Shown here in pieces: positions 1,477 to 26,592 of a stretch of DNA of 32,000 bases. The position numbers were made by a program, and so were the translations under genes. Below the pieces are notes generated by a model. The model ran no database searches, had not been told where the DNA came from, and saw only the letters and a list, made by a program, of their open reading frames with translations. The stretch covers positions 1 to 32,000 of the forward strand of contig CAWIGO010000001.1 of assembly GCA_963835625.1 (NCBI GenBank), given 5' to 3'. The stretch's first letter is position 1. Every line of letters starts with the position of its first letter. The stretch comes from an uncultured Verrucomicrobiae bacterium (GTDB lineage Bacteria; Verrucomicrobiota; Verrucomicrobiia; Limisphaerales; UBA11358).

Positions 1477-4400
1477 TCACATTGGAGTAAGAAAATCGTC
1501 GCGCAGCTTGTATGCAGTGGAGGAGCCGGCGGCAACCATCTCGTCAAGAAGCTTCATTGCGGCCTGGCGGAGATCAGCTTCGACGCGTATGCGGCGATTG
1601 CCACCGTAAATAAGGCGGGTCAGAATAGTTTCGAGATAGAACACTGTAATCTCGGAAAGCAAAGCTGCCCCGCCTGTCATGGGCATTTTTGTTGCGAGGC
1701 TGATGAATGCGTCGGGGAGTGTTGGAGAGCCAATTTTTTCGAGGAAGTATGTGTATACCTCGAAACCTTTTTGGCTCGCCGGCATACGATCAAACAATCC
1801 GCGTATACGTTGTTCTTCGCCATGGAGTGGATTCCAGTCACGCGCCTCGCCCCAATTATCGCCAAGGAAAAGCTCCCGGAGAAGTTTGGCGGAATGTGAA
1901 TGTTCGTTGTCCGCTGAAGCCGGCAGGGAACTAGCCAAATAACCGTCTGCAAACCGCTGCCACAACATCCAGAAAGTCGTTGCCGGTGTTTGATCCCCTT
2001 GACGTATCACCAGCCATTTGACGACTTCTGCTGCTTTTTCCGGCAGATGGCTAGACACACTGAAGACCGGCTCCAAAATTTCATTTGCCTCCTGCGCCGG
2101 TTGGTTGAACGCGAATTGCACCAGCGGGTCCACGTAAAGGTGTTCCACCTGTGCGTCCAACTCCTGCTCATCGTCCGGTTTCTCAACCCGCGAATGACGC
2201 CGGTTATGGTCGGTTGTCCACCTGAGAACCAAAGCGGCTGTATTGCGTTTGAAAAATCCGCGCGCAAGCGGATCGGTAAATTGTGGACCGAAAACCGCGA
2301 GCAGATGCGGTGCAACCTGTCGTCCCGGCCAGCGCGTCAAATCAAGCTGGAGAATGGCATCGTCATTGCCCGTTTTGCGGTTTTCAACGAATTTACGCAA
2401 CCGCGTGAGCAGGTCGGCACGAAATTGAGCTTCGGTTGCCGCATCTTCGGTAGGCTTCCGCCGTCGTTCATTCCAAAATTGGTTTTGCTCGACCGCTTCC
2501 AGTATAAGCGCGTGAACACACGTCAGAGCGAGTGGCCGATCTGATTTCCACAAATAAGCCCCGATACCTTGCACGGCGTATTTCACGACTTCATCCACGG
2601 AATGAGTTATCGCTTTGGCGAGAGCTGGCAGCAGCCGAGCTTGAACATCGGGGGCGCATTGTTTTTCAAACAATGCAGGCAGAATGAAAGCTGCCGGGCG
2701 TGAGGCTTCCATGGCGTTTAGCGCCGCAATTTTGAATTGATCTGAAGTATCTGCATCCGCTTCAACCGAATCGCAGGTCATTATGGCGCACCATTCCTTT
2801 TCAGCGTCCGCTAATTCAACCCAATGATCCCGGATGCACACGGCGGCCACATAAGCCGGTCCGGCAAGTGCGATAGATGTCTGAACCTGGTCTGTTACTT
2901 TATTGATGGAAGCAAGCTGTGTTTGTGCCGCGTCAAGTTTTGCTTTCCATTGTTCTGGTTTGACGCCCTGTGCCGGCTGCCCCGCAAAGACCGACCGGCC
3001 CCATACGAACAAACTCGTCACCGCATCCCAGGTTTCCCGCTGCGGTTTTTTCGCATCAATCATTTCTTGAAGTTCGGGCGGCGGGGCTGAGGCTTGAATC
3101 AGCACGCGTCCATCTTCTGCTTCGCCCACTTCAACAAAATTTCGCGTATCCATTTGGTGCAGCCTGAACCGCCACACCTTGATCTCATCATCCTGTTCGT
3201 TTTCTTTTGGAAGTTCCGCTTTATACGCATCAAGCAGCGCCCAGACCTGATCGCGAAAACGCGACATTTGCAGCATCACGGCAAGGTATTCAAGATGCTG
3301 CGGGCGATGCGGCAAGCGGGCGGATTCAGTGCGCTCGTCATCATATAACTTCTTTTCAACGCCCAGCCATATTCCCGTATTCATGCGGCGAGCATTCATC
3401 GTTTCGTTTACGGAACGCTCCAAATCCGCCTTAAATAGATGCTTGCACGTCAGGACGGCAAATGCCGCGTCGCCGGCCTGGCTTGGGTAAGCTGTGGTCA
3501 CGCTGGCGACGACTGCTGTTACGGCGATATTGTTGCTTTGACTTAAAAGACGATTCAGTATTTCAGGCAAATCAGTTTCACCGCGAGCCGCTTTGTTGAG
3601 CAACCAACGTTCCAACGCCATGAGGGCACTTTTCAGAACGTCTGGGCCATGGGTGAAGTCTCGGTATAATTCCCATAAACGGCCGTCCCCAAACTGCATT
3701 TGGGTTTTGCCATCCGGCAACTGGATGGCTACGCGCATTGGGCCGTTTATGCCACGTCTTCGATTGGACGGATGTGCGTAAGCTTCGCATGAACGGTTGG
3801 CAAATTTCAAAATGAAATCGAGACCTCGCTGCGGGTGGTGCGAAAGGAATTTGAAAAATGGTCCATGATACGCGCTTGAGGGGTAGTCGTCCATTGATGA
3901 TCGGAAACCGAGTCCGAAAGCGTCATTCATCGTGTTCATGTCGTATCCAGACCCAACCGCGAGGGCCTGTTCTACAGAAAGATGCATGCCCAGCGTGTAT
4001 TCACCTACGCTGATCATCAAGTCGGGCATGTCGCGACAGAGGGCGTCGGAATAAAAATGATTGAACATGAGTTCAAGCAGTTCTTTGTAATCATGATGGC
4101 GCCTCTTGTCGTCCATCGCAGTCATGGCCATTTGCGTTAGCGTTGCTTTGGCGGCCAAAGGTATGATCAATAGGATTTTGAACAGCCGTTCGCGTCCATC
4201 ACGGACAGGAGAGCGCCATGACTTCACATTTGGCAACCAGTGCAGTGCCAATTTGGCGATGGATTCCGCACCTTTTGGATAACGCAAACCCCAGCGTGTC
4301 AATTGCACCCAATCCTCCATGAATCCAAGGACAAAAGGAAAATCTGCTTCGCCAAACTGCGGTATGGCTGACTCCATCAATTCAGCGGCCCCGGTCCAGC

Positions 4401-6537
4401 CATTTCCTCGGGGCAAGAAGACATCACCAGCACCCTCTATCCCAAACAACCGCCGTGGAATTGCCGCCCGACACGCAACACGCAGAATGTGGATAACCTG
4501 CCGCAGAAGTTTTGCGCCATCGGCAATCAAAAGCGTGGCATTCCGCCGCAAAAAGCCGTTCGCATCGGACGATTGAAGCACGCCCACGAGTGTGTCATCC
4601 CGCCAATGCGCAGCAATAGATGTATTTTGGATAACATCCAGAACCAGTGTGTCGGTCGTTTGCGGGGCTGTATCCAGCAATTCTGTCAGCCACTTCCGGT
4701 AGGCGCGCCGCAGGGCGGGATACGTTCCAACTTGAGCAAAAAGCACGGCCAGACGGCGCTCGCTGCGTTCAAATTCCGCGTCCAACCAATGCGCCAAAGC
4801 CCAATCTTCAAATACATCGTGCGCCGGAGCAAAATGGTCATCACCCGTCGTGGGGGTTGCCAGCAAACTGTCGCGGACGAGTCTGTGAAGCGCGCGCGCA
4901 TCAAGGTCCGTAGCCGAAACGAATGGCTTCATGGCCTTTGCACGGCGCAATGCCACTTCAACTAAAATCTCGCCACGCAACCGTGGCAGCCCAATCTGCT
5001 GGCCCTCGTCCGGGTGGCGAACAACATCCCGCCAAACTTTTTCCCGAAACGCGCGCTCATGCGATGGAAGCGGTTCTGTCGCTGGCCACTGCATTTGCAC
5101 GGCTTTATCCAACAAAAATGGTTTCTTGAGCATTCGGCGGAGCGCGTCACTCGACATCGGGCGTTGCATCGTGGGAAATTCAGCCGTCGCCTCGTCCAGT
5201 TCGGCGTCACTCAATTCAGGCACGAAGATGTCTGCGCAGGGTATGCCGACTTCGTTAAAAAGGGCGCTTCTCACGGTTTCTGCCGAGTAGTCCCGGCAGG
5301 TGATGAGCAATCTCCACGTGGGATCATTCTTGATGGCGCGAAGCAGGTCGAGAAAAGCCGCTCGTTGTTCGGCATCTTTTTCCATCAACCGTTCAAGGCT
5401 CTCAATCCACAGAATTTTTCGGCCATGCAACGCGGTTTGTGCGCGAAGGCCGTCAATAGTGAGTTCAAAACGTGCGAGAACTTCATTGATATGAGTGCCG
5501 GCGAGACTTTCAGCGCGAAACGCGAAGCCGACTGCGCCGATGGTGGCCAAAGAAAAACCCATTTTCGCAAGCACGGATTTTCCCGAACCCGCCTCGCCCG
5601 TCACAAACACGAGTGGATTATTTTCGATGAGGCGACAAAGCTGACCGAACAGTTCGCGCCGGGGAATCTCCATCTTTCCACCAATCGTGGTGCGAATTCC
5701 ATCAACGACTACGCGTGTATCCTCCAACAGGCGTAATGCACCAACCGGGTATCCACTGGCGTGGTTGTGCTGTTGCAACAACGGTTCGGGAAGTTTTTCT
5801 AGCGTATAGGACGAAGCCGTCCCTGTTCGAGTAGCGGCCAAGGTGCAGAGGGTGTTCCACGTTGCATCGGCGGCGGCTGTATTATTGTCACGGGCTGTAA
5901 TTGCGAGCAATGAGCGCATCATGGTCTCGATGAATCCATGTTCAACATTGAGATCACAATCCACCACATTGAAGCGGCATAAAAATCGCCAGATTTCTTC
6001 GTCCGTTAGTTGCGGTCCGCTTGAATCTCGCAGGATTGCTACAATATTATTGTAGTAATCAAGCGTGGGTTTTCCAAGATAACCGGGAATTTGCAGCCGT
6101 CGAACCATGTCAGCGGAATCAGTCGAGGCCAGCGCACAGTCGAGCAAAGTGCGCAGCCCCCTGACCAGTTTTGTAGAAAGGCTGCTCGTAATCAGTCCAA
6201 TCACGTCACGATTCTGATTGAATAGTGATGTGTTTCGGAAATCAGCAAAAGCGCGCCGTAACGTTTCGGCAGATTCCTCATCCTTTTCGCTCAAAACAAA
6301 CGCGCGTTTAATCTGAACGGCTGCCTTCCTGTTCAACCCCTTTTCATCAACCACCTCCAATAGAAGGTCGTCTGTTTTCCAACCTAGGTATTTGGTTTGG
6401 AAATGCACTACATTGACCGCGCCGGTTTCGAGGAAGAATGGCGCGCCGCCTGTGAGCAGGAGCGTCAAACAAGCTGCCCCGACTTTGAATTCAAAGTCCT
6501 GTCCAGATCCGCCTGTTGCTGATGGGCTGGTTATCAT
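1477..6537 (-). CDS. Avs-like antiviral STAND P-loop NTPase (1686 aa) with an Mrr/Cap4-like PD-(D/E)xK N-terminal domain and a long helical C-terminal region
   Basis: I trimmed ORF 1477..6969 to the ATG at 6537 (codon 145). The upstream 144 codons are Arg/Cys-rich and overlap repeat copy A. The N-terminus reads 'GQDFEFKVGAACLTLLLTG ... WKTDDLLLEV ... AAVQIKR', which fits a nuclease layout of FE helix, Asp, then QxK. Walker A is 'VTGEAGSGKSVLAK' and a Walker B-like 'KILWIESLERL' follows. About 1100 aa of helical sequence follow with no repeats I recognise. Confidence 0.7.
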   Translation of the reverse strand: MITSPSATGGSGQDFEFKVGAACLTLLLTGGAPFFLETGAVNVVHFQTKYLGWKTDDLLLEVVDEKGLNRKAAVQIKRAFVLSEKDEESAETLRRAFADFRNTSLFNQNRDVIGLITSSLSTKLVRGLRTLLDCALASTDSADMVRRLQIPGYLGKPTLDYYNNIVAILRDSSGPQLTDEEIWRFLCRFNVVDCDLNVEHGFIETMMRSLLAITARDNNTAAADATWNTLCTLAATRTGTASSYTLEKLPEPLLQQHNHASGYPVGALRLLEDTRVVVDGIRTTIGGKMEIPRRELFGQLCRLIENNPLVFVTGEAGSGKSVLAKMGFSLATIGAVGFAFRAESLAGTHINEVLARFELTIDGLRAQTALHGRKILWIESLERLMEKDAEQRAAFLDLLRAIKNDPTWRLLITCRDYSAETVRSALFNEVGIPCADIFVPELSDAELDEATAEFPTMQRPMSSDALRRMLKKPFLLDKAVQMQWPATEPLPSHERAFREKVWRDVVRHPDEGQQIGLPRLRGEILVEVALRRAKAMKPFVSATDLDARALHRLVRDSLLATPTTGDDHFAPAHDVFEDWALAHWLDAEFERSERRLAVLFAQVGTYPALRRAYRKWLTELLDTAPQTTDTLVLDVIQNTSIAAHWRDDTLVGVLQSSDANGFLRRNATLLIADGAKLLRQVIHILRVACRAAIPRRLFGIEGAGDVFLPRGNGWTGAAELMESAIPQFGEADFPFVLGFMEDWVQLTRWGLRYPKGAESIAKLALHWLPNVKSWRSPVRDGRERLFKILLIIPLAAKATLTQMAMTAMDDKRRHHDYKELLELMFNHFYSDALCRDMPDLMISVGEYTLGMHLSVEQALAVGSGYDMNTMNDAFGLGFRSSMDDYPSSAYHGPFFKFLSHHPQRGLDFILKFANRSCEAYAHPSNRRRGINGPMRVAIQLPDGKTQMQFGDGRLWELYRDFTHGPDVLKSALMALERWLLNKAARGETDLPEILNRLLSQSNNIAVTAVVASVTTAYPSQAGDAAFAVLTCKHLFKADLERSVNETMNARRMNTGIWLGVEKKLYDDERTESARLPHRPQHLEYLAVMLQMSRFRDQVWALLDAYKAELPKENEQDDEIKVWRFRLHQMDTRNFVEVGEAEDGRVLIQASAPPPELQEMIDAKKPQRETWDAVTSLFVWGRSVFAGQPAQGVKPEQWKAKLDAAQTQLASINKVTDQVQTSIALAGPAYVAAVCIRDHWVELADAEKEWCAIMTCDSVEADADTSDQFKIAALNAMEASRPAAFILPALFEKQCAPDVQARLLPALAKAITHSVDEVVKYAVQGIGAYLWKSDRPLALTCVHALILEAVEQNQFWNERRRKPTEDAATEAQFRADLLTRLRKFVENRKTGNDDAILQLDLTRWPGRQVAPHLLAVFGPQFTDPLARGFFKRNTAALVLRWTTDHNRRHSRVEKPDDEQELDAQVEHLYVDPLVQFAFNQPAQEANEILEPVFSVSSHLPEKAAEVVKWLVIRQGDQTPATTFWMLWQRFADGYLASSLPASADNEHSHSAKLLRELFLGDNWGEARDWNPLHGEEQRIRGLFDRMPASQKGFEVYTYFLEKIGSPTLPDAFISLATKMPMTGGAALLSEITVFYLETILTRLIYGGNRRIRVEADLRQAAMKLLDEMVAAGSSTAYKLRDDFLTPM

Positions 6538-6651
6538 TTCCACGCAAAACGAATTATTGCCTACAATTATTGTGCCGACGAATGAAAAATCAACAACGTG
6601 GTGACGCAAAATCGCACCTTGTAAAACCGTGAGCTGATCTTGCTTAAATTT

Positions 6652-6900
6652 GCTTCGGCCTGCGGTTTGGCGAACGGGAAAGTGGAGCACAGGCGGAGAG
6701 ACGAAGGAACGCAGCCGGAGCGAAACGACCGTCGCCGTGCCGCAGGCGGAAGCACGCCGAACATTCGATGCTATGCGGATGCGCGCTCGTGACGAGCGCG
6801 CGATTTGCGGAGTGGAGCGGGCGTCGTCGAGAGGGGGACAGGGACGACGGGCAGCCCGTGAAACGCAGCAAACCGCGCGTTGGTCACGGCGTAAACGGCA
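6652..6900. repeat. Copy A of a ~250-nt structured repeat family (candidate ncRNA or cis-regulatory element)
   Basis: It aligns in the same orientation with 25021-25270. By hand alignment there are 8 mismatches in the first 109 positions. The 3' half is diverged but carries compensatory changes in at least three helices (see findings). No reading frame is conserved between the copies. Confidence 0.6.
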
Positions 6901-7669
6901 ATTATGCTGTAGCCGGCTCTCATGTGAATATTTCCAAACAGACCAAAGTATTGACACCAGCATCACCATTTATGAATATGATCTACGCAATTACAGAAAC
7001 GTCGTGGATTACAGAACAGAGGCATTCAAAACGAAATTGAGCGATGCAGGGCGACACCTCGGTGTAACACCCAAGGACGTGGTGTCGCTCAAGCTCCGGG
7101 AGAATGTGAGTTCAAACGCCGAATATCGGGAGTTTTTCCGCGCGTTGGAGCATGAAGCTGGGTTTCAATGCACTCCAGTTGATGGCGATTTTCAAGGCAA
7201 AGGCTATCTTTTAGCCGATGGCAGCAGCCGAGTAATCATTGTCGAGCACGAAACCGGTTTGGAAATTCTTTATATTGCTGGTTCGATTGCGTCTTTGATC
7301 GGAATTTTACCGTTGATTGTTCAAGGCTGGCGTGCCTTTCGCGGTCATCACGCCGGGAGATGTGATTTTGACGACTGGGGTGTTGAGATTCGCCGAATAG
7401 ATGAGAAAGGACATCTTTCTGAAGACCATGTTCACGAAAGGTCTTTGTTCCACAATTCGCAATTCACAGCAAACACTTTTCTTGCAACATCAGCAGCGAA
7501 GACCATTGAATCCGAATTGCAGCAGCTTAAGGAGCAGATAAAAGCATTGAGTGGCCGTGTGGACACCCTTGAAGGAACAAATCCGGCCAAGGCCAAGAGC
7601 CGCAAATCCAGGATGAGCAAAAGGGGTTCGCAAAAAAGGATTCGCAGACCCCGATCTGATGCCGGCTGA
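6773..7669 (+). CDS. Hypothetical protein with one predicted TM helix and a coiled-coil, basic C-terminus; start codon unresolved
   Basis: The sequence is protein-like from about 6960 onward ('ITIYEYDLRNYRNVVDYRTEAFK...', TM-like 'GLEILYIAGSIASLIGILPLIVQGW', coiled-coil 'ELQQLKEQIKALSGRVDTLEG'). The only in-frame ATGs (6650, 6773, 6779) lie inside repeat copy A. The nearest in-frame alternative start is a GTG at 7004. Confidence 0.45.
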   Translation: MRMRARDERAICGVERASSRGGQGRRAARETQQTARWSRRKRQLCCSRLSCEYFQTDQSIDTSITIYEYDLRNYRNVVDYRTEAFKTKLSDAGRHLGVTPKDVVSLKLRENVSSNAEYREFFRALEHEAGFQCTPVDGDFQGKGYLLADGSSRVIIVEHETGLEILYIAGSIASLIGILPLIVQGWRAFRGHHAGRCDFDDWGVEIRRIDEKGHLSEDHVHERSLFHNSQFTANTFLATSAAKTIESELQQLKEQIKALSGRVDTLEGTNPAKAKSRKSRMSKRGSQKRIRRPRSDAG

Positions 7670-7679
7670 AATTGACGAG

Positions 7680-7775
7680 GCTTTGGTCTGCGGTCGGGGA
7701 TCGGGAGAAGTGGAACCCAAGTGGAAAACCGGCGAAGCAAGCTGAAGCCGCACTTGCGGAACGTGAATATGTCCA
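7680..7775. repeat. Copy C: truncated, diverged third copy of the repeat family, upstream of thyA
   Basis: 7680-7716 'gctttggtctgcggtcggggatcgggagaagtggaac' parallels the 5' core of A and B ('gcttcggtctgcggtttggtgaacgggaaagtggagc'). 7731-7745 'ggcgaagcaagctga' parallels B 'ggcggaagcaagccga'. 'gtgaatatgtcc' (7763-7774) parallels 'gtgaatatttcc' just after copy A (6924-6935). Confidence 0.45.
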
Positions 7776-7869
7776 GCCAGCGTCTCATGCTGGGCGAAAT
7801 AGCTTTGCGGACTGGTTTAATTTCGTGCTTTCACATTCTGACAATTCAAGTTAAATCACTGAGGTAGCG

Positions 7870-8664
7870 ATGGTTCAATACCTCCAGCTTCTGCGCCATG
7901 TAATGGAACACGGCAGGCCAAAGCCTGACCGCACCGGCACCGGCACATATTCTATTTTCGGCGCGCAGACGCGATTCCAGCTTTCGCAGGGATTCCCACT
8001 TCTCACCACAAAGAAAGTTCACCTCAAATCTATCATCTATGAATTGTTCTGGATGCTGCGTGGTGACACGAACGTCCGTTGGCTTCAAGAGCACGGCGTG
8101 ACCATCTGGGACGAATGGGCGGACAAAGATGGCAACCTTGGCCCAATTTACGGCGCGCAGTGGTGCAACTGGCGCACGCCTGATGGCCGTTCAATCAATC
8201 AAATTGATCAGGTTATCGAAGAAATCGAAAGCAACCCAGACAGCCGGAGGCTCATGGTAAGCGCGTGGAATGTGGGCGAACTTGAACAAATGTCCCTGCC
8301 ACCGTGCCATTGTTTATTTCAATTTTATGTGAGCGACGGCGAATTAAGCTGCCAGCTTTATCAACGAAGTGCAGACATTTTCATTGGTGTGCCGTTCAAC
8401 ATCGCCAGTTACGCGTTGCTTACAATGATGGTAGCGCAGGTTGCCGGACTGAAACCCGGCGCATTCGTTCATACGTTCGGCGACCTGCATCTTTACTTAA
8501 ATCATGTCGAGCAGGCAAAACTTCAACTCACTCGTCAGCCGCGCCCGCTGCCGACTATGAAACTCAATCCCGCCGTCAAGAATATCCACGACTTCAAGTT
8601 CCAAGATTTTGAATTAGCGGGTTATGACCCGCATCCTGCGATCAAGGCGCCGGTGGCGGTTTAG
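7870..8664 (+). CDS. thyA: Thymidylate synthase (canonical ThyA, 264 aa)
   Basis: The protein is collinear with E. coli ThyA along its full length: 'DRTGTGT', '[11 protein letters not shown]', catalytic Cys in '[10 protein letters not shown]', '[10 protein letters not shown]', '[14 protein letters not shown]'. A GAGG lies 6-9 nt upstream of the ATG. Confidence 0.95.
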
Positions 8665-8740
8665 GCTGTCGAATCGGGTTCGAATGGAATTCGCTCAAAA
8701 GAGGCAGCTTTTGTGCTGCACGACTTCCATCTCACTCCGC

Positions 8741-9925
8741 TTAGTTGGACCGAAAGGCCAAAACGACTTCTTCTTTAATCAGTCCCTTGTGGCCACACCG
8801 GTTGGGCGCAAGCATTCTGTCTTTGATAATATCAGTGAAAGAATCAAATAGTTTGAAGCCTCGCTCGACCAACATATCGCGCAGGATTTGCCATGTGCGG
8901 ATGCGCACTCCTCCGATAAGATTGTCTCCACAGACCAACACGAACGTGCCTTTGCGTTTTAGGCACTTTTTGATGATGTCAAACGCATTTCCCATATCGC
9001 GCAGGTAGTGGAGGACAATTGCCTCCGACCGAGGAGACTTTCGCGCCAGTTTTTTTATTTGAGGAATTCGCTCACGTTGGCGTCGGATTTGTTCGGCTGA
9101 AATGCCGGCGAGAAGATTGCCGCGTTCTGTGCCGATAAAACACTCTTGAAGTTCGCTGACTCGAAACGAGAGCAGCCCTTCGAGTAGATATAATTCGAGT
9201 TTGAAATTACGAAAGTAATCTTGAGCATTGATATACGGAGGCGACGTAATTACATGCGAGTGCTTTCCGATTAGACGTGGGATTGAAGTGTCACAAGTCA
9301 CATCAGCTAACAAAAAGCGACAATCATTTTTGTGGAAATCTGCCCCATAAACCTCGCCTAATTCTTTCAAAAGCATGTGAACCATCCGATACGGGTCGAA
9401 ATGTTTTCCTTTACGAGTGGAGATTGCCTTTTTTGAGATGAAAGGCTTCGGACTTCGCTGGTCGGCTTTAGAGCAAAGTCGAATTGATAAAGCAAAAGCG
9501 AGGAGCACGGCCTTCCCATCAATTGTATTGTGCAACTTAAGATTTTGACCGGCTGCTCGAAGGCGTTCATATTTTTCCAGCGTTGCCGAAGTGAACCAAT
9601 AATGTTTTGCTGGCCATTGAATGGGAAATGTCCGTTTTGTATTCCGGGCTGTTTGCACAAATTCATTTGCAAGTGCTGTTGCTTTCTCAACAGAAAATCC
9701 TGTGAGTTTAATTTCAGAGAGCAAGCCGGCCATCGGATTCAAATCGATCCCAGTCACTGAAAGACCGTTCCGACGACCGGCAACGAGCACCGCACCCGAC
9801 CCACAAAATGGATCTAAAATGCTCTTGGCATTAACTGCATAACGGCTCACAAGTTTGTCAGCAAGCCGTGACACCATCTTGGCTGGATACCTGTCGAGAC
9901 GCGTTGGTAAACGCATTTTCATCAT
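8741..9925 (-). CDS. SAM-dependent N6-adenine/N4-cytosine-type DNA methyltransferase (394 aa)
   Basis: Motif I 'ILDPFCGSGAVL' lies upstream of motif IV 'ITSPPYINAQDY'. I set the start at the ATG at 9925, which forms an ATGA overlap with the stop of the upstream gene (9922-9925). The longer ORF starting at 10024 would overlap that gene by 103 nt. Confidence 0.8.
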   Translation of the reverse strand: MMKMRLPTRLDRYPAKMVSRLADKLVSRYAVNAKSILDPFCGSGAVLVAGRRNGLSVTGIDLNPMAGLLSEIKLTGFSVEKATALANEFVQTARNTKRTFPIQWPAKHYWFTSATLEKYERLRAAGQNLKLHNTIDGKAVLLAFALSIRLCSKADQRSPKPFISKKAISTRKGKHFDPYRMVHMLLKELGEVYGADFHKNDCRFLLADVTCDTSIPRLIGKHSHVITSPPYINAQDYFRNFKLELYLLEGLLSFRVSELQECFIGTERGNLLAGISAEQIRRQRERIPQIKKLARKSPRSEAIVLHYLRDMGNAFDIIKKCLKRKGTFVLVCGDNLIGGVRIRTWQILRDMLVERGFKLFDSFTDIIKDRMLAPNRCGHKGLIKEEVVLAFRSN

Positions 9926-10866
9926 ACCTTCTTCAAAACCCAAGTTATACCGATGCCGTGTGAAAAGAATTCGTGATTGTGCCGGAGTGGGCTTGCATAA
10001 ACGATAGCTGGTGGGTCGTTGCATTCTCGAACGTAGGAATAAATTCCTAAAGTTTGCGGCTTTGTGCCAAGAGGACTGACAACTTTAGCGTGCAAGCTAC
10101 GTTTGTCTCTTTCTCCCAGAATCTGATCGAGTGCTTTACAAGTAGCCTCCGGATCAGTCGAATCAACTTTCGATATAGCTTCGTTGCCTACGAGACCTAT
10201 AAGATCAGCATTGAAGCGCTCTGTTCTGCCTGCCCACGAAGGCTGGTATGGCGGATATGGAATAACCAGCGTTGTCTGCATTGGCTGAACATGCTCATAA
10301 GTCGCGAGAACCCTGTCTCCCTCGTAACCAAGGAACAACACCAAATGCACCGGTCTGCTCAAGTCTGGACAGGCGGAAAACCCGGGGATTTGTTGAAATG
10401 ACGCGATCCCGAAGGATAGCGGAATAAATTGTGATACGTCATAATCCTCCGGGGCGGTGTAAACAACGCAAAGCTTGTCCCAATAACCCTCATCGTCCAG
10501 CCAGCGAAGCATCATGAGCAAGTGACGTTTTGTGAATACGGAAATGTCCAAGACAATTGCGTCACTCTTTCGCGATGCTAGAATCTCCTTAAGCTGATTC
10601 ATATTGTCACGGAGACTCATAACAGCATTGGATTCCGTAAATCGAAGCGTAGTTGCCGATACAGCGGCTGCACTTAGCACATCCAGCATTGCTTTATGAC
10701 GAATTTCACGCTTGGGATTAACATCGTCATAATGGAAAATCACAGCGCCGCTTGGCCTCCAGCCTGCCATTCTGGACACAAAACCTTCACATCGCGCTTC
10801 ATGACTTGAACAAGTCAGCAGCAATGCGCGTGCTGGCATCAAGCTTGGTGAAAACTGGGCTTTCAT
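9922..10866 (-). CDS. Hypothetical 314-aa protein with an alternating beta/alpha (Rossmann-like) pattern, possibly tandem CARF/SAVED-like
   Basis: Its ATG lies 13 nt after the TIR-ATPase stop, and an ATGA overlap joins it to the downstream methyltransferase. Two similar halves each run hydrophobic strand, small residues ... 'VLDISVFTKRH' / 'VVSPLGTKPQTLG'. The second resembles the CARF 'TGGTKPMS' signature. The fold assignment is speculative. Confidence 0.65.
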   Translation of the reverse strand: MKAQFSPSLMPARALLLTCSSHEARCEGFVSRMAGWRPSGAVIFHYDDVNPKREIRHKAMLDVLSAAAVSATTLRFTESNAVMSLRDNMNQLKEILASRKSDAIVLDISVFTKRHLLMMLRWLDDEGYWDKLCVVYTAPEDYDVSQFIPLSFGIASFQQIPGFSACPDLSRPVHLVLFLGYEGDRVLATYEHVQPMQTTLVIPYPPYQPSWAGRTERFNADLIGLVGNEAISKVDSTDPEATCKALDQILGERDKRSLHAKVVSPLGTKPQTLGIYSYVRECNDPPAIVYASPLRHNHEFFSHGIGITWVLKKV

Positions 10867-10879
10867 CTTGGTATGGTTC

Positions 10880-13135
10880 TTACAGCAAACCAGGCTGCTT
10901 ATCGTCCGAATGGGCTTTTGCCATCGTCGTCATGAGCTGCTTCTTTGCTTGCGCGCGCTGACCGGGTGAGAGAAGTTTCGCCAAATCATTACATTTAACT
11001 TTTGTGCGCCAGCGTTGGCGGGGGCTGATTTGTAGCACTGGTGCATAAACTCGCGAGATATTGAATTCAACTGGTTGTGGATCAGAACTATGCTTTGGCT
11101 TGAAACCAGGCCTTCCCTCTTTCGTTTGGAAAACTCCCTCCTTAGCACCGACCGTGAGAATGCGGCGAAGGTCGTCATAATTGGCTGAATCCAAATGTTC
11201 CGGATCGGCAATCGTCAATCGCGCTGCCTCCGGTTCACTCGTATGGTTCAAAAGTCTAAATCTAAGGCAATCACCTAAATCGAGCAGGAAGTATTTTAAG
11301 GTCTCTCCGTCAGCTTCAATATTCTTGCTCAGGGTGGTTAGATTGTGTTGGGACACAAAGTGGACTGCATCGGACTGTTTCTTTGGAGGCAAAACGAACT
11401 CATTCGTTGGCTGTTGCCCCGAACCATAAGTTAAGTGGTAAGCTACGCCGAGGAATTCTTGGAAATAGCGAATTACGCCAGAGCTTAAGAAAGCCAACTC
11501 ATTAAAACCGGAAAAATGTTTGGCTTTGTGCCGCCCTTTATTTCCATAAAGAACTCTGTAGATTGCGGTCTCACCATAATATGTCATTTTTTCCCGCTGC
11601 TTTTCGACTGGCCAGTTTTGAAACTGTTTGACACTCACTTTGCATAGCTTCGCAACAGAAGCAAGAAAAGCCTCCGCACCAACTTCCTCTGAAGTATCTG
11701 CCGGCAGAAGTTGTTGCATATTGCTAAATGGCAACTCTTCGTTCTTCAGAATGTTAGTAACAATATGGGTCAGAAGCTGGTTGTACGCACTTTGCTGTTC
11801 CTTGTCTTCGAGATCGTAAATCAGTGGAACGCGGGTATAATCGTGGATTTCTTGTAACTCTTGGCCTGTCATTGTGCCAGAGGTATCCGCAGTCCCAATC
11901 TTCTTCGCGATTTTTATGGATGCATCTGGGGAAGCTAACTTAACGTAACTGTTTACAATCCGTTGCTGATAAGGAAACAAATTTTCATACTCATCCAGCA
12001 ACGCCATGAATGTCGCGTTGGCGAACATCGGAATCAACTTCTTGACGAGCTTGATCGTTCGTTTCAACGCTTCCAGGTCAAAGGTTGCGATGGGAACGGA
12101 TACGTTTTCCTCATATATGAATTTTCGCCGTATAAATCCTGCGATCTTGAGGTGTATATTGGCCAACTTGCTGAGCAACTCGTCTAAATTTCTCGGCGCG
12201 TTTTGATCCGTGTCAAAGAGCGCCAAATAAGCGGCCTCTGCCAAAGCCTTCTCAGCATGTCCATCACAAGACAAGAGTTGCTGTTTGATGCAAAAATCGA
12301 TCTCTGAAAATAAACTTTCGAGGAGACAAATGATGATTTCTTGCGAACCAATATCAGTGATTTGAATAAAATCACGCTCGTTAGCGATTCTTGGATCACC
12401 GCAGGAGTTTGGAAGTCCTGCATTGCAAATTGCACCTCGACTGAGCTTTAGATAGAAACCAAATATTTTCTGGCCGCTGCCACTTGCTTTGTGCCGCGCA
12501 AGAAAATTGCGCGCTCGCAGAGACAGCAAGAGCATAGATTTTCCTGTTCCGCGCGAACCCTCTAGGAAGCACGGTTTCATTTCTTCAAGTGCGCCTGTCT
12601 TTTGCGCATCAGGCGGTGAGAATGTCTTAGCCAGCAGGTCGGGCCGGTCCTCAAAATATTCCGCGCGGACACGACGGAATGGATTGCTCGATTCTAATTT
12701 GAATGCTTCCAAAACCACCGAGGAGGCCGTTTTCCCTGATAAAATTGCGCCGCACAAATCTTCCAGTAGTTTTTTGTAGGAATTGGGGTCGGATACATTC
12801 AGTTTTCCAAACACTTTGTGGCCAAGCACTGGTGGAAGCGGCGAATCATCAAGTTTCACAACCATACAGACGCCACCCGACTGTTCGACTTCATTCCAGA
12901 CAGCCGAATAAATTTCGAGTTTCTGCCATTTGGCCTGCGGAGTGTTTTTGGAATAAAGAATGACAACAGTATGAGCGCCTGCGATACCGTCGTTCATGAA
13001 GCCAATTGCGTCCACACCCAACTTCAGTTCATTTGTATCGACTTTTGTTTCGTGGCTGGCATTGCGTAGGTCGCCTTCAAGTCGTTTTGCAATCTCGACA
13101 TCCGCACCAGCGTGTGAAATAAAAATATGTTTCAT
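10880..13135 (-). CDS. TIR domain fused to a P-loop ATPase (751 aa)
   Basis: The N-terminus 'MKHIFISHAGADVEIAKRLEGDL ... VVILYSKNTPQAKWQKLE' fits the bacterial TIR pattern, with the candidate catalytic Glu in WxxxE. Walker A is 'EGSRGTGKSMLL' and Walker B is 'FMALLDEYENL'. The start lies 7 nt downstream of the DUF499 gene stop. Confidence 0.8.
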   Translation of the reverse strand: MKHIFISHAGADVEIAKRLEGDLRNASHETKVDTNELKLGVDAIGFMNDGIAGAHTVVILYSKNTPQAKWQKLEIYSAVWNEVEQSGGVCMVVKLDDSPLPPVLGHKVFGKLNVSDPNSYKKLLEDLCGAILSGKTASSVVLEAFKLESSNPFRRVRAEYFEDRPDLLAKTFSPPDAQKTGALEEMKPCFLEGSRGTGKSMLLLSLRARNFLARHKASGSGQKIFGFYLKLSRGAICNAGLPNSCGDPRIANERDFIQITDIGSQEIIICLLESLFSEIDFCIKQQLLSCDGHAEKALAEAAYLALFDTDQNAPRNLDELLSKLANIHLKIAGFIRRKFIYEENVSVPIATFDLEALKRTIKLVKKLIPMFANATFMALLDEYENLFPYQQRIVNSYVKLASPDASIKIAKKIGTADTSGTMTGQELQEIHDYTRVPLIYDLEDKEQQSAYNQLLTHIVTNILKNEELPFSNMQQLLPADTSEEVGAEAFLASVAKLCKVSVKQFQNWPVEKQREKMTYYGETAIYRVLYGNKGRHKAKHFSGFNELAFLSSGVIRYFQEFLGVAYHLTYGSGQQPTNEFVLPPKKQSDAVHFVSQHNLTTLSKNIEADGETLKYFLLDLGDCLRFRLLNHTSEPEAARLTIADPEHLDSANYDDLRRILTVGAKEGVFQTKEGRPGFKPKHSSDPQPVEFNISRVYAPVLQISPRQRWRTKVKCNDLAKLLSPGQRAQAKKQLMTTMAKAHSDDKQPGLL

Positions 13136-13144
13136 GGCTGCCTT

Positions 13145-15928
13145 TTAGGAGCGTTGCCCGAGGTTGACATCATCATTCAAACCGAGTTCGCGCAACGCGG
13201 ATTTCGTTTCGTCGAGTTTCTGTTTGGAGACGCCGCCTTCGGGTAACACTTCAACTTTCACGGTTAATTTCAAGCCGCGCGCGGTTGCGAACTTGGAAAG
13301 AACTTTCGTGTAAAAGTTCATCCATTTCTGCGGCGGAATCTCGCCTGTCCACGTTAGGCCGGACGCGGTTGAAGACGCTGGGGATGTCGGGGGAATCAAG
13401 TCAACCGGCACGGCAGTGCCAGCGGCGGCTGGTATTGGCGCTGACGGAACTGGTGCGGTGGCAGATGCAGGCGACGAAGCCCGCGTTTTTAGATAAGTCT
13501 CTGCGGTTTCCTTGGTGACGATGAACATTTCCTCGGAGAATTCCACATCGGCGGTCATCAACGCCTGGTTGAAGGAAAACGGTTTGTAACCGTTAGCCGT
13601 TTTACCGACGTAACCGAGCAAACCATTACCAACTCCGCGCGAAATCGTGTCCCTCAACACGTCCGGGTTCGTCAAGCGCGGAAATTGTGGCGACGCGAAA
13701 AACGCATCACGCACGGATTTCGTTGACCATTCCTTGAATGCGGGCGGCCAGTTGCGAATTAGAAATGACGGACTGATGCCTTTTGTTTCCAAGTCGCCAT
13801 CGGAACTCAATCGGCCAACGATTAACGAAATTAAGTCTGTTGCCGCGCTGGAATGAACCAAGCCGAGATCAACGCGTTTCACGGTGTTGTCTTTGCCAAG
13901 CAACATCAAATTTTTGTAGGTGCGCCAGATGGTTTCCTTCAAGTCGCGCCGGGCTTTTTTGAGGTTTTCCGAAAGTTGATGAACCTGGGTTTCATCCAGT
14001 TTCAAATCATCGTCTTCAATGGCTTCCCATGCGAGCACCTTGCGAGCGTCTTCGCGCAATGTGTCCGGTGATTCCGGCACGCAAAAGATGACGGCGCTCT
14101 TGAAAGTGCGAGATGATGTGCCGTATTCGCGAATCATGTTTTCAATAAACGGCACTGTGGCTTTCTCGTCCTGCAACGACCGGTCGGGTGACAGCACGAC
14201 CAGCGTGACCGTTGGACGATCAGTAATCTGAATTGTCTTCTCCGCGAAATAAACACGCTCCAATCCGCTGCCTGCAGAAAAGACGTTTTGGATTTCCTCG
14301 CAAATGTGTTCTTCAACTTGCGCGGGCGGGATGGTCGCGCGCCGGTCGGCGAACCGCTTGTTGAGATTTTCTTTAAGGCTGAAATGATAGCGATTGCGTT
14401 CGACTGCAAGGTAGTAACATCCTTCGGTGAGCGCTTCCAACACCGTCTCGACGTTGCCGATGTCGAGTCCTGGTTCGGCCACGGCAAAACGAATTTCGGG
14501 CACGGTTGCGTCGGTCTTCGCCTGACCACCGTTCGACTCAAAGAAAATGGCCGTTATCGCTTTGCGATGCAGGCGAGCATCTTTGATTGTCTCCTGCGCC
14601 TCCGCGTCAAGCCGCGTTGCATGTGAATCGCGTTTGCCGCAAATATCGGTCGTCACCGCTCCTTCCAGTTTCGTTTCGCCCAACTGCTCAAAAGTTGCGG
14701 AGCGGAACATGGCGTCGTCAAGGGGAGCCGTGCCCAGCCCAATCATCGCATCCTTGTGCGCGCCCTTGAATCCTTCCTGATAGGCACGCGACACCCAAAG
14801 CGCGAGCAAACGCAAAATGCCACGGGTCTGCTGAAAACGTGGCAGCGCCTGCCACTTGCGCTCGAACACGGAAATGACTGCCGGATGAAACGGATATGTT
14901 GCGGTAAATGCCTCGCGCGCCCTGTCCGCGTTAAACTGGCTTGGCAATTGTTGCCGATGTTCGACAACCCAATCGGCGTATTCCGCACACGTTTCCAATG
15001 CTTCCTTGGGTAACATCACTTTGCCTTCGCTGGTCACGGCGCGCTCGTCCCACTCGAACAACCGGCGACGGATGATTTCGGAAATCTCCGTGTCGGATGA
15101 CATGACGATGGCCTTGCCAAGCCGGTCGAGCACTTTCTTGAATCGCTCGAAATCGGACTGGTCTTCCGCAGTCATTTCCAATTCCGACGCCGGAATGGAA
15201 ACGGCCAGCACGATGTTGTCTGTGCTGCGCGCCACTTCCGAAAGATTTTGCAGAAAATTGTAAAGCTGCGCGCCCAAACCGCCCCGGCGATTGCGGCTGA
15301 CGTAATTCATCAACTCGTCCATCAAGATGAGGCTCGGTTTGTCCTTCGGAAGAAATTGGCGGATGACTTCGCCGCCGGGCGCCTCTCCCTTTTTGTCGTG
15401 CTCGGCCACGATTGCGAAGGCTCGCTCCCCGCCAAGTTGAAACGCAATCTCACCCCAGGGCGTTTTGCGAAGCGGCGTGCCGTCTTTTCCGCCGCGCCCA
15501 CTGATGGAGTCGAACTCGGTGCCGACGAACACGGCAGCACTGGCCTTTGGCACACTCGCTACGCCCGCCTTGGAAAGTAATGTTGCCACGCCCGCCCACT
15601 TGTTTGCGGCAGGGCCGTGCTTTGCCAGATGGAAAAGCAGCGTGAGCGCGTGTGTCTTGCCGCCGCCAAATTGCGTCGAGAGATTGAAGATGGCGTTGGT
15701 TTCAGTTTTCTCGCCGGACAGACGGCGGATGACTTCGGAAGCGAGACTGGCGAGATTCTTGGTGAGATACGTGCGCTCGAAAAAACGTTCCGGCTTTTGA
15801 TAATCGGCAGGCGCTTTGCCTTCGCGAACCTGATCCAAATGCACGGCGAATTCAGACGCATCAAGCGGCTTGCCGTCGCGCAAGTCCTCGCGCGGAGTGA
15901 CAACTTTATACCAAGGTTTGAGAGGCAT
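13145..15928 (-). CDS. DUF499-family ATPase (927 aa; BrxC-related P-loop protein)
   Basis: The N-terminal signature is 'KPWYKVVTPREDLRDGKPLDASEFAVHLDQV ... FFERTYLTKNL ... STQFGGGKTHAL'. The ATG lies 3 nt after the DUF1156 methyltransferase stop (TAAGTTATG). Confidence 0.8.
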   Translation of the reverse strand: MPLKPWYKVVTPREDLRDGKPLDASEFAVHLDQVREGKAPADYQKPERFFERTYLTKNLASLASEVIRRLSGEKTETNAIFNLSTQFGGGKTHALTLLFHLAKHGPAANKWAGVATLLSKAGVASVPKASAAVFVGTEFDSISGRGGKDGTPLRKTPWGEIAFQLGGERAFAIVAEHDKKGEAPGGEVIRQFLPKDKPSLILMDELMNYVSRNRRGGLGAQLYNFLQNLSEVARSTDNIVLAVSIPASELEMTAEDQSDFERFKKVLDRLGKAIVMSSDTEISEIIRRRLFEWDERAVTSEGKVMLPKEALETCAEYADWVVEHRQQLPSQFNADRAREAFTATYPFHPAVISVFERKWQALPRFQQTRGILRLLALWVSRAYQEGFKGAHKDAMIGLGTAPLDDAMFRSATFEQLGETKLEGAVTTDICGKRDSHATRLDAEAQETIKDARLHRKAITAIFFESNGGQAKTDATVPEIRFAVAEPGLDIGNVETVLEALTEGCYYLAVERNRYHFSLKENLNKRFADRRATIPPAQVEEHICEEIQNVFSAGSGLERVYFAEKTIQITDRPTVTLVVLSPDRSLQDEKATVPFIENMIREYGTSSRTFKSAVIFCVPESPDTLREDARKVLAWEAIEDDDLKLDETQVHQLSENLKKARRDLKETIWRTYKNLMLLGKDNTVKRVDLGLVHSSAATDLISLIVGRLSSDGDLETKGISPSFLIRNWPPAFKEWSTKSVRDAFFASPQFPRLTNPDVLRDTISRGVGNGLLGYVGKTANGYKPFSFNQALMTADVEFSEEMFIVTKETAETYLKTRASSPASATAPVPSAPIPAAAGTAVPVDLIPPTSPASSTASGLTWTGEIPPQKWMNFYTKVLSKFATARGLKLTVKVEVLPEGGVSKQKLDETKSALRELGLNDDVNLGQRS

Positions 15929-15931
15929 AAC

Positions 15932-18900
15932 TTAAAATCCAAGTCCCTTCTTCCGCGCCAGAACACCGTCAACCCAGCGCTTTTCTTCGGTGTGCGAAGG
16001 ATACAAGGCCGAGAGCGCTTGCGCCAGTCTCCAAAACCGTTGATCCCGACCCGCGCCGTCTTCGACGATGAATCGTTTCAGCGCTTCGCTGCGTCCGGCG
16101 GCGAAAAGAATCATACTCTGGTGGATGCGGTCGAGGACGGTCTGACCTAACTTCTCAATGCGTCCTTCGATGGGTGTCGCCTCGGCGTCCGGGTCTTTGC
16201 CGCTGGCAATATCCGCTTCGCGGACGACCTGCCCCATCTCAATTTGCTGGCTGCGAGTCCTGCGCGCCTTGGTCTTGGGCAGATTTGATACCTCACGGCC
16301 GGTGAGATAGGCAGACCGCTCCGCCACCGGCAGCAGGCGAGCGGTTTCGCCAGAAATTTCAACGAGGCTGCTTAAATCTTCCAAATTTGCGCCGAGGCCC
16401 TGAGCGATTTTTCGCGCGGCGTCGTATTCGAGGACGAAGCCGGTCGTCTTTGATTTCTTCGCGCCACCTTCGGATTCCTCATCCACGTCTTCATCCTCGG
16501 CATCTTGGCCGGACCCGGCATCGGCTCCCGCGTTCAATGTCCAGAGCCACATGGCGGTGAGGCGGGCATCGGCCTCGAAGCCGGTGACGTCCGCATCTTT
16601 GAAGACCAAGGCCAGCGCTTCCTTGGCGACGGCGGCCCAGACTTGTTCCAGATATTCTTTGAGCGTGACGGTTTCGCCGCTGGCTTTTTCCACGCGCGAA
16701 TAGCGGGAGAAAATTTCCAGGGCCGGGCCGAGACAGGCGAAGATGGCATCCGCGCCGACAACGCCTTCTTCGGCCAGACGCGGCATCCATTCGTGAATTC
16801 GGACGGGCAACGCCTGCAACACGTCGCGCCAATCGCCGATTTCGTCCGTGCGCACCGAGCCGTCGGGATTTTCGCGCGGGCGACAGACGAGATGAATTGA
16901 AGAGGCAAGCACAGCGGAATCTTGTGCGCGTAGCCTTGAACCACATTCTGTGTCAATTGGCCAAGATGCTTGAACAATCCAACCGGCTTCGATTACGGCA
17001 TTAAGCATGGTTTCCCATGCGGCAGTCGTTTTGTGCGCAAAAACAATAACGCAAAGTCCTTGGGGCTGAGTGATTCGCCTTGCTTCCGATAGCGCTTTGA
17101 GCATCTGCGTTTCAAAGTGTTGCTTAGTTTTGTAAGCATACTTTGGATTTCGTTCAGCCAATTGAACCGCTTCTTCGCGCTTCGGCGAAAGTTCTTCTAC
17201 AAATAAATCACCGTGAATGCCGGCAAGTGCGCGTTTTAGCCAAACGTAAAAAAAGTCAGACAAGTCTGCGTAAGGAACAGCGTCATAATATGGCGGATCG
17301 GTAACGACAGCCTGAACAGAATCATCGGCAAGAGGATGTTTGGTTGCCGATGATTGGACAACAACGCCAGTGGTAGTCAAATTCGACAACATGGACTTAA
17401 TGACATGCTCCAAACGCTCAACCTGAATTATCCAGCCTCCACTAGAGTCACCGGTGACAACGCCTTCGGCAAAATCCCAAATAATTCCGATGGCTTGGCG
17501 ACCAAATAATTGCCGTGGACATTCGGCGACTGGTTCCCATCTACAAAGTGAATTTCCAAGGTCAGCTTGTTTACCGAGCATGAAAGCAAGGAGGGTCTGG
17601 ACTGCGGCAGCTAATTCGCGGTCTTCGGTTTTTGCGAGTTGTTGGCCAGCCTCACGAATGAGACGCACTAAAACCACCATCACTAACATCTGACGACTGG
17701 AGAAAAGCTGGCCCCATTGAGTGACATCCAGAAGTTGTATGTTGAATATGCTTCGTAAGTATGGAAGTTCCTCTTCTGGAATGAGCGTTGGCTGTCCGGT
17801 GTGTTGAGCCTTGAATTTGCCAAGACGAGTTTTTGCCGCGTTGAAAGCTTGGTAATCGGTTTTTGCAGCAAGCCGAAAAAGCCTTCCGGTATGGTCCGGG
17901 ACTTTGACCACGACTGCAAGAAGCGTGGCCGAATCAGCCCCGCCGTTCTTTCCTTTGAATTGGGCGCGGACTCTTTCGGCTGGAGTTGTGTAGCCGCAAC
18001 AGGGACATGTGGCGGAACTCCGTTTCAAAGTGCCATCGAATTGTGGGTCAGCAATTTTCTCGTTTTGATCATCCTGGTTCGCCCAACCGCCACGCTGCTT
18101 GATCAGAATTTTGAAATCCACGCGCTTCGCTTTTTTGTTCGGCACGAGTTGCAGCGCCACGGAACGGTTGGCTTTCTTGGCGAGCCAGAGGGAGCGGATG
18201 AGCGGCACTTCCGCGCCGCAGCCGGGGCCTTCGCATTGAATCGTCCGCGCCCAGAGATAGGCGATGGGCGTCGCGCCGTCCGCGTCCTTGGGATAGAACT
18301 CGGCCAGTTCCTTTTCGGCTTCGCGCTTGATCCATTCGCCCCATTTGCGGACTTCATCGGCAAGACGCTGGCCGTATTTGGGAATGTATTCGAGGACGAC
18401 CTTGTTGAGCAGCACCGGCACGGGATTGAGGTCGGACGCGAAGGCGTCGGCCCCCACGCGGAGCGCTTCCAACGGAATGGAGCCGCCGCCGGCAAACGGG
18501 TCCACGACGAGCGGGCGCGTGCCGGGCGCACCGCCCAGCGCCTCATGCGCCGCCTGCGTGAGCGCGCGGCTGGTGGCGAGAAATTCGGGCACGGTGGAGC
18601 TATCCCAATTGGCAAAGTCGGCGATGAAGTCGAGCAGCGCGCCGCGCAGTTCGGTCGTATCGTCGAACTTTTTTGGCTGCTGTCGCGCCGCCTCGAATCG
18701 CGCCCGGCTTTCCGCGCTCAAAAGATTCTGCCGCTCGTGCGTGGTCCATTGCAGCATCAGCTCGCGCGCCTGCTTGACGAAAGCCGGCGGACAGTTTTCA
18801 TCCGCCGGGTCCGGCCACAGCGCCGCGCATATCACCGCCCGACACGCCGCCAGCGGTCGCCTCGCCCACCAGATGTGCAGCGTGGAAATGTGCCCGTGCC

Positions 18901-18985
18901 GGATGGATTTCTCGCGCCGCGCGTGCGCAGAGATGCGCTTGATGGGCAGGTCAACTTCGATGAGGCGTTTGGGGTAAGCAGGCAT
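15932..18985 (-). CDS. DUF1156-family DNA methyltransferase (1017 aa) with an internal Zn-ribbon
   Basis: The N-terminal DUF1156 signature is '[43 protein letters not shown]'. Motif I is '[15 protein letters not shown]', a Cys pair 'CPCCGY' is present, and motif IV is '[23 protein letters not shown]'. The ATG abuts the GGCT stop (TAAATG). Confidence 0.85.
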   Translation of the reverse strand: [1017 protein letters not shown]

Positions 18986-19438: not shown

Positions 19439-19488
19439 ACGTTGTCTCGGATTACGTCGGTCTATTCTCCGGCATAGCGTTTAACCCG

Positions 19489-19531
19489 AATCGGTAGATT
19501 GGCCGAAAAAATCGGTAGATTATCGGTAGAT
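19489..19531. promoter_or_regulatory. Three direct copies of ATCGGTAGATT (iteron/operator-like) in the only intergenic gap of the eight-gene array
   Basis: There are exact 11-mers at 19489-19499, 19510-19520 and 19521-19531, giving start-to-start spacings of 21 and 11 bp. The last copy overlaps the stop codon of the DUF4062-wHTH gene. The block lies upstream of the GGCT gene on the minus strand. Confidence 0.5.
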
Positions 19532-24836: not shown

Positions 24837-24857
24837 GCTGCTGTTTTCCAGCGGCGC

Positions 24858-24962: not shown

Positions 24963-25020
24963 TCCGAGATACCGATAAAACAAAGTGAAGCGGCTACGTT
25001 GGTTCAAATAAGTTTTGCAA

Positions 25021-26433: not shown

Positions 26434-26538
26434 ATTGTGCCTTTCGTATAATTCTAGTGGCAACAATAGTGGCAACGTCCGCTGATGTCAAGCGTGTTTC
26501 AATATGTCGGATTGTTAGGAAATAGTTAAATTTGTAGT

Positions 26539-26579: not shown

Positions 26580-26592
26580 GTTCTTTTAAATA

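Follow-up and report, generated by a model that had tools for sequence, protein, structure and literature searches.

A conserved three-hairpin element downstream of the relaxase gene in Verrucomicrobiota mobilizable islands, a candidate single-stranded DNA signal

The 32,000-nt stretch of an uncultured Verrucomicrobiae bacterium analysed here (the window) contains two copies of a structured non-coding module of three hairpins, designated E, that belongs to the backbone of a family of tRNA-integrating integrative mobilizable elements found in Verrucomicrobiota. E is part of a mobile island and not a cellular RNA gene; selection for pairing is confined to its + strand (the sense strand of the relaxase gene trwC), and no relative of this new conserved element has been described. 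Its function is tentatively read as that of a strand-specific single-stranded DNA (ssDNA) signal, by analogy with the single-strand origin sso1 of ICEBs1.

Copy A (6649–6894) and copy B (25019–25263), both on the + strand, were delimited by repeat search, MAFFT alignment and nhmmer. They are full-length direct repeats of a 245-nt element lying 18.4 kb apart, and MAFFT detected no A–B homology outside these limits, where the flanks are unrelated. A previous sequence-only reading of the window had aligned the two copies in the same orientation and counted 8 differences in their first 109 positions; the alignment was confirmed with the limits given above, and the count is exact. Identity between A and B is 85% overall, or 86, 94, 80, 78 and 74% by successive 50-nt bins, and the repeat search of the window returned the direct repeat pairs 6652–6767/25022–25137 (92% identity) and 6784–6871/25152–25239 (80% identity). 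Copy B is nearer to copies in other genomes (92.5% identity to that of locus L008; L numbers denote loci outside the window) than is copy A. As also claimed in the earlier reading, no reading frame is shared: B has stops in all six frames, and the frames that are open in A are closed in B, so that six-frame translation rules out a coding relic. E begins with GCTTCGG and ends with GGTCACGGCG; these ends form no inverted repeats and the flanks show no duplication, which excludes a MITE or IS end. The element is thus neither a degraded gene nor a MITE, the two possibilities that the sequence-only reading had named against itself. A template/variable repeat pair of a diversity-generating retroelement (DGR) was also ruled out, as the A–B differences, read from the alignment, are not adenine-specific.

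The two copies are no chance likeness; nhmmer finds ~80 more in other Verrucomicrobiota genomes and in metagenomes. An exact 23-mer scan covering one genome per species identified five Verrucomicrobiota/Limisphaerales metagenome-assembled genomes with full-length E, and a two-anchor pattern search yielded 86 metagenome loci, mostly from peat and bog samples, ~78 of which were recognised as E copies by nhmmer, nearly all of them full length. There are 59 distinct full-length E sequences. Distinct relatives from Verrucomicrobiota genomes and peat metagenomes thus number ~60, and every one of them adopts the three-hairpin fold described below. Pattern matches with shorter spacing (L009–L012, L023, L029 and others), considered as a divergent E subfamily, proved to be chance matches in coding DNA. 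Searches of the whole window against Rfam 15 (4227 models) gave nothing at the gathering threshold, and at an E-value of ≤10 copies A and B gave chance-level miRNA and snoRNA matches only. No intact tRNA or tmRNA was detected in the window by ARAGORN, and no match to E was found among PLSDB plasmids by blastn in distant mode. That the earlier reading recognised no riboswitch, RNase P, tmRNA or the like in the element is consistent with these results. E has in common with the uncharacterised mobile-element motifs of Rfam that it is structured, conserved, non-coding and confined to mobile DNA, and that sequence alone cannot decide between RNA and ssDNA; it differs in that none of the 4227 Rfam models matches it, even at an E-value of ≤10.

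Copies A and B share an architecture of two long hairpins, D1 (~105 nt) and D3 (~110 nt), with a small one, D2, between them. By RNA folding of the + strand, D1 spans ~6651–6754 in copy A and is followed by the small middle hairpin and by D3 at ~6783–6892; in copy B, D1, D2 and D3 occupy 25022–25123, 25125–25140 and 25152–25260. The RNA minimum free energy (MFE) of copy A is −123 kcal/mol on the + strand (z = −6.0) and −104 on the − strand (z = −4.7), and that of copy B is −120.9 kcal/mol (z = −6.35) and −88.7 (z = −2.9), respectively. This strand asymmetry appears with RNA parameters only; with DNA parameters, the two strands of copy B are equal (z = −3.57 and −3.59). The unpaired parts of E are highly conserved in sequence, and a purine-rich, (GGN)n-like stretch forms the D1 apex. 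Two natural short copies (L098 11528–11713, designated L098b, and L075 2921–3130) lack 35–50 nt of the D1 apex and retain the D1 basal stem, D2 and D3; such rare partial copies are ordinary deletion variants.

Among 56 aligned sequences, 93.8% of the cells in the consensus stems are paired, against 29–45% when partners are slid, and changes on both sides of a pair occur in 49 cells, against 15.5 in shuffled alignments, with 0 of 500 shuffles reaching 49; 14 pairs show double changes. Compensated pairs number 15 of 64 in a more diverse set of 14 sequences, including one in the long-range closing stem of D3, otherwise invariant, where a T-to-G change in L105 is offset by an A-to-C change in the distant GGTCACGG. 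At A4 columns 176–218, 38 sequences have a C-G pair, 12 have G-C and 2 have A-U. G-U swaps freely with A-U and G-C in 28 pairs, and G-U-type cells outnumber A-C-type cells by 280 to 84, indicating that the + strand is the folded strand under pairing selection. The covariation is real yet limited, because the E sequences are so alike. These figures (49 against 15.5 cells; 15 of 64 pairs) support the earlier claim of a conserved structure with compensatory changes, and two of the helices drawn then, cgtcgtc/gacgacg in A with its counterpart tggtcg/cgacca in B and the enclosing cggg/cccg with ccgg/ccgg, are genuine and reappear in other members of the family. The third proposed hairpin (6755–6770 in A, 25124–25139 in B) exists, but it contains a C-A mismatch in A, whose MFE fold adopts another local hairpin in its place. 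For the two remaining hairpins, gcgctcg-tga-cgagcgc and cgcc-gtgccgca-ggcg, other pairings have better support: in the family consensus both segments engage in long-range pairing, one closing D3 and the other forming the 3' arm of D1. For the gcgctcg segment it is the compensated change in L105 that favours the long-range pairing over the local hairpin. The gtgcc loop, described as invariant, varies within the family.

Both E copies lie inside one tRNA-integrated mobilizable island, of which the window holds the right-hand 26.5 kb. The window begins within the C-terminal part of a TrwC-type (MOBF) relaxase-helicase (1–1056, +), truncated by the window start and found by tblastn to be 81–87% identical to residues ~590–945 of relaxases with the Pfam domains TrwC and AAA_30. 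It is followed by the gene for a 118-aa protein, F5 (1022–1378, +), which has 512 homologues and no Pfam family, always follows trwC and is a marker of this island family. The first cargo gene, divergent from copy A, encodes an Avs4-type STAND NTPase (1477–6537, −; nSTAND match, Avs4 E-value 1e-147), the true start of which is probably near 6537, the further extent of its ORF, to 6969, being fortuitous. Just right of copy A, a good sigma-70-like site (6928–6901, −; TTCACA-16 nt-CATAAT, 10/12 matches) points leftward into A and would yield an antisense transcript through A towards the Avs4 gene. The second cargo region, between copies A and B (6947–24551, mixed strands), was annotated from Pfam and defence-system matches. 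On the + strand it encodes an unknown ORF (6947–7669) and the thymidylate synthase ThyA (7870–8664). On the − strand follow a type II methyltransferase (8741–10024), a CARF-like protein (9922–10866), a TIR and ORC/Cdc6-like protein (10880–13135), HmaC (13145–15928), HmaB (15932–18985), an AIG2/GGACT-like protein (18986–19438), a DUF4062/HATPase_c_4/HTH protein (19531–21066) and HmaA (21063–24551).

Between this cargo and copy B is a 53-aa remnant of the C terminus of a TrwB-type coupling protein (24681–24839, −; 70% identity to residues 435–486 of the L098 protein). On the other side of copy B, and convergent with it, lies a gene for a tyrosine integrase (25279–26475, −; Phage_integrase and SAM_5 domains), whose stop codon is ~16–20 nt from the 3' end of the element; an exact-protein look-up of this integrase returned no record. 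Next comes the 3' half of a tRNA-Ser-like sequence (26527–26580, +; GGGGGTTCGAATCCCCCTCTCTCCGCCA), comprising the T arm, the 3' strand of the acceptor stem and CCA and lacking the 5' half. It gave a partial match to the tmRNA/tRNA clan on the + strand and an antisense match to a plastid trnS-region model. This fragment is a probable att-site scar marking the island–chromosome junction, and an intact tRNA-Ser must lie past the left end of the window. Ordinary chromosomal genes are found beyond it; the placement of copies A and B in a single island follows from this order of features, ending in the tRNA fragment with chromosomal genes after it. Within this chromosomal flank, two repeat families at 29824–30801 (spacing 803 nt, 73–88% identical), located in ORFs 29588–30373 and 30370–31311, appear to be tandem paralogous genes.

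The genes recurring around E in the island family encode a coupling protein, p105, a ParA-like protein, p145, p84, TrwC and F5. In the backbone, genes for the coupling protein, the ParA-like protein and small proteins come first on one strand; TrwC, F5 and E follow in divergent orientation, and 3' of E there is usually an integrase and then the tRNA junction. In all 21 copies with a relaxase in reach, E is positioned 3' of trwC-F5 and on its strand; it is likewise downstream of F5 in 7 of 7 island types retrieved by F5 homologues alone, an unbiased test in that the F5-anchored retrieval made no reference to E. The distance from the F5 stop to the start of E is 20–28 nt in the simplest islands (L062, L072, L098, L105, L107); the other F5-anchored islands have inserted cargo between the two. 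E is not a stand-alone element: its place within a mobile island, 3' of the relaxase gene, is fixed. The integrase of L106 and a tRNA-Asn are located at the opposite end of the island, so that E goes with the relaxase module and not with the integrase; in L075, a mini-element without a relaxase, E is kept beside the p84-proximal oriT-like hairpin. E is alignable at bit scores of 165–270 between islands whose F5 proteins are only 41–72% identical. A gene for a PUR-like protein (Pfam PF04845, PurA), divergent from E, adjoins it in at least 15 loci (e.g., L084 4314–4682 and L104 10375–10746). PurA-family proteins bind both ssDNA and RNA, and the sequences that PUR proteins bind are of the kind found at the D1 apex; this neighbour together with the purine-rich D1 apex suggests a protein partner for E, whether E is DNA or RNA. 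A type I-G (I-U) CRISPR-Cas system (GSU0053, GSU0054, Cas3) adjoins E as cargo in L044 (1207–6962), and type I-G Cas cargo is also present in L043, L049, L060, L065, L069, L093 and L108, the last with Cas4-Cas1 and Cas2 in addition.

In ~25 loci an integrase gene of one of at least four unrelated lineages lies convergent at 7–100 nt from the 3' end of E, and beyond the integrases are tRNA genes for Cys (L025, L077), Met (L060), Leu (L036), Thr (L075) and Asn (L098). Because the integrases abut the 3' end of E in convergent orientation, it was first considered that E might be a chromosomal housekeeping RNA gene used as the island target, with the two copies as attL and attR. The 18.4-kb spacing of the direct repeats and the integrase adjoining one copy fit this explanation, as does the occurrence of one upstream flank with several different downstream flanks. 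It was dropped because the integrases separate E from the tRNAs or tRNA fragments, where the island ends, and because relaxase genes are upstream of E; in every case with enough context E is inside the island, by relaxase genes. The copies in the window are moreover full length and 85% identical, with no partial distal copy sharing an identical core, and E has no conserved chromosomal neighbourhood. Such a target gene is scarcely credible.

It is very improbable that E is instead a site for the adjacent tyrosine integrase, acting in integron-like cassette capture. The proximity of the integrases, the cargo between direct E copies and the capacity for single-strand folding would all suit such a site, and E resembles integron attC in being a folded single-stranded site with a tyrosine recombinase nearby and direct copies bounding cargo. 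The attC sites, however, are imperfect palindromes of 57–141 nt with low sequence conservation that serve one dedicated (IntI-type) integrase family. E is far longer at 245 nt, is near-invariant, and stands beside at least four integrase lineages, each targeting its own tRNA gene (Cys, Met, Leu, Thr, Asn, Ser). The L106 integrase at the opposite island end argues further against it, and homologous recombination suffices for the observed pattern.

This pattern is seen in the eight contigs in which two direct E copies flank cargo: the window, L036, L089, L040 + L025, L080 + L081, L056 + L070, L098 and L101. In L098, a short and a full E flank a DUF3368/UPF0175 toxin-antitoxin pair. L048 has the order U1-E-int, whereas L089 and the contig comprising L040 and L025 have U1-E-[13.6 kb of Wadjet-like and MmeI cargo]-E-int. 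Across these three, the flanks are 99.6–100% identical and the paired E copies are identical from position 21 onward. More generally, flank types are shuffled around E, one upstream flank occurring with several downstream flanks, and a four-gamete matrix is incompatible throughout E with no hotspot, so that E is a mosaic and a single recombination breakpoint or nick within it is rejected. Homologous recombination at E accounts for the cargo pattern without a dedicated recombinase. Conservation of E far exceeds that of the genes around it, which makes E a place where defence cargo can be swapped, duplicated or deleted by recombination; its role as a homologous-recombination hotspot is partly shown, and is regarded as a side effect. 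In the window, the coupling-protein remnant adjoining copy B indicates that the A–B interval came from a second island backbone. Copies A and B are thus the product of recombination or accretion of a second island module (thyA, Hma cargo and coupling-protein remnant) and not two genes, the second backbone having joined in and then been largely deleted, as evidenced by the remnant at 24681–24839.

The TrwC relaxase of R388 catalyses recombination between two oriT copies, and E could accordingly be imagined as an oriT or second relaxase site, at which TrwC-type recombination of two copies would create or delete cargo. Its linkage and fixed orientation relative to trwC, the direct copies that flank cargo and the presence/absence polymorphism bounded by E are in keeping with this. 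It is nonetheless improbable, as a better candidate exists at the usual place of a MOBF oriT, E being downstream of trwC-F5. Between the divergent p84 and trwC genes, 35–45 nt upstream of trwC, lies a conserved palindromic hairpin TTTGTGnnn...nnnCACAAA with compensatory stem changes (L098 ~7150–7190, L101, L104, L062, L075 2747–2775), which from its sequence is the likelier candidate for an oriT inverted repeat or an operator. In addition, the four-gamete matrix shows no single breakpoint in E, the partial E copies are explained by ordinary deletions, and no R388/F-like nick motif was seen on reading the sequence of E.

With respect to transcription, a sigma-70-like site was found in only 4 of 59 upstream flanks, at no fixed position, and a T-run in only 8 of 52 downstream flanks. 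A stand-alone bacterial sRNA gene, for which a conserved promoter and terminator were sought in these flanks, is rejected on these counts. A Bacteroidetes-type TAnnTTTG promoter, read from the flank alignment, occurs upstream of E in some flanks only and inconsistently. An intrinsic terminator at 25152–25166 with its T-run was likewise rejected; this hairpin is part of the D3 helix, as the T-run covaries with the A's in the opposite (3') arm. Across dozens of unrelated flanks, homology starts at the base of D1 and stops at the base of D3. The element had been described as a candidate novel structured RNA: a conserved, structured non-coding element it is, while its RNA nature is called into question by the promoter and T-run counts and by limits that coincide with the helix bases.

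The main alternative, only somewhat less probable than an ssDNA signal, is that E is a structured non-coding RNA of the island, made from the + strand as the processed 3' end of a trwC-F5 transcript or from non-canonical promoters. In such a case it might control transfer, the integrase (which is convergent, making antisense read-through possible) or the cargo, perhaps with the PUR-like protein. The very strong and strand-asymmetric fold obtained with RNA parameters (z = −6.35 against −2.9), the free exchange of G-U with A-U and G-C in 28 pairs and the high conservation of the unpaired parts, a trait of RNAs that make tertiary or protein contacts, are in favour of an RNA. So is the position of E 20–28 nt behind F5 in the simplest islands, where it would be co-transcribed, and PurA-family proteins bind RNA besides ssDNA. 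To be set against this, both a conserved promoter and a conserved terminator are missing; the genes upstream of both window copies are divergent, and no + strand promoter-like site was found at or within A or B; homology ends right at the helix bases; there is no Rfam relative; and the covariation is modest, the sequences being so similar. The more specific proposal that E represents a new class of large (~245 nt) structured RNA of mobilizable defence islands, one that would govern transfer or the expression of integrase or cargo together with the PUR-like protein, is judged unlikely, and a dedicated folded recombination site that captures defence cassettes is even less likely than that.

The relaxase-linked position of E in the island suits a cis-acting ssDNA element no less well than an RNA. 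Single-strand origins and initiation sites (sso/ssi) are non-coding stretches of 150–350 nt with hairpins on one strand, and E shares these properties together with an orientation fixed relative to the relaxase (21/21 and 7/7). The closest precedent, sso1 of ICEBs1, measures ~200 nt, has three stem-loops and follows the relaxase gene immediately; it functions in an orientation-specific manner, with structure counting for more than sequence (PMC4595007). E resembles both sso1 and the sso of rolling-circle plasmids (pTA1060, pBAA1) as a non-coding region of ~200–250 nt with three stem-loops on one strand, and resembles sso1 in particular in its fixed orientation and in that, within an integrative element, it comes directly 3' of the relaxase gene. 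There is no sequence similarity between E and these origins, the host phylum is different, and the relaxase is NicK in ICEBs1 and TrwC/MOBF in the E islands. E also differs from sso in its lack of RNA-polymerase-type hexamers, in its unusual sequence conservation and in being sometimes duplicated.

In the proposed mechanism, the island would be nicked and unwound for transfer or rolling-circle replication, allowing the + strand to fold into D1-D2-D3. The folded E would then be recognised by the host priming machinery (primase, PriA or RNA polymerase) and complementary-strand synthesis would begin, E serving as a single-strand origin (sso/ssi); the purine-rich D1 apex may be bound by the island PUR-like protein. 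Several observations weigh against an ssDNA signal. The G-U/G-T bias cannot separate RNA from ssDNA, and folding with DNA parameters is about equal on both strands (z = −3.57, −3.59). If transfer is R388/F-like, with the relaxase gene entering last, the − strand would be transferred, and not the strand on which E folds. E is more conserved in sequence than a structure-only origin requires, and the D1 apex is missing from two natural copies (L098b, L075). The stems of E are also without −35/−10-like hexamers, unlike Frpo and ssoA-type origins, and any priming at E would therefore be of another type.

Frpo ssDNA promoters of plasmid leading regions consist of long hairpins formed by one strand, frequently repeated in direct orientation, and need −35/−10 hexamers in the stem; their neighbours are defence-related, methyltransferase, toxin-antitoxin and ssDNA-binding genes for which the folding strand is the template (PMC11541004). 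Many of the genes adjoining E are oriented in the Frpo manner, with the folding strand as template. The E stems, in contrast, have no −35, −10 or UP-like elements, the orientation of the neighbours is not constant, and the cargo by E is defence where that by Frpo is anti-defence. An ssDNA promoter of the Frpo type or an ssoA was rejected on the ground that copies A and B contain no + strand sigma-70-like site.

Single-stranded origins and signals are, to our knowledge, hardly known outside Firmicutes and enterobacterial plasmids, and we know of none described for Verrucomicrobiota. With ~60 distinct sequences, E provides a precise and abundant candidate for an ssDNA signal, and it marks widespread mobilizable islands of peat-soil bacteria whose cargo includes Avs4, Hma, Wadjet-like, MmeI, type I-G Cas, toxin-antitoxin and TIR systems. 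It also exemplifies how an ultra-conserved non-coding segment can serve as an exchange junction for defence cargo. If E is an RNA, it would represent a new family of large RNAs confined to mobile elements. E is a good candidate to be the first origin-type ssDNA signal of Verrucomicrobiota; failing that, it is a candidate for a new mobile-element RNA.
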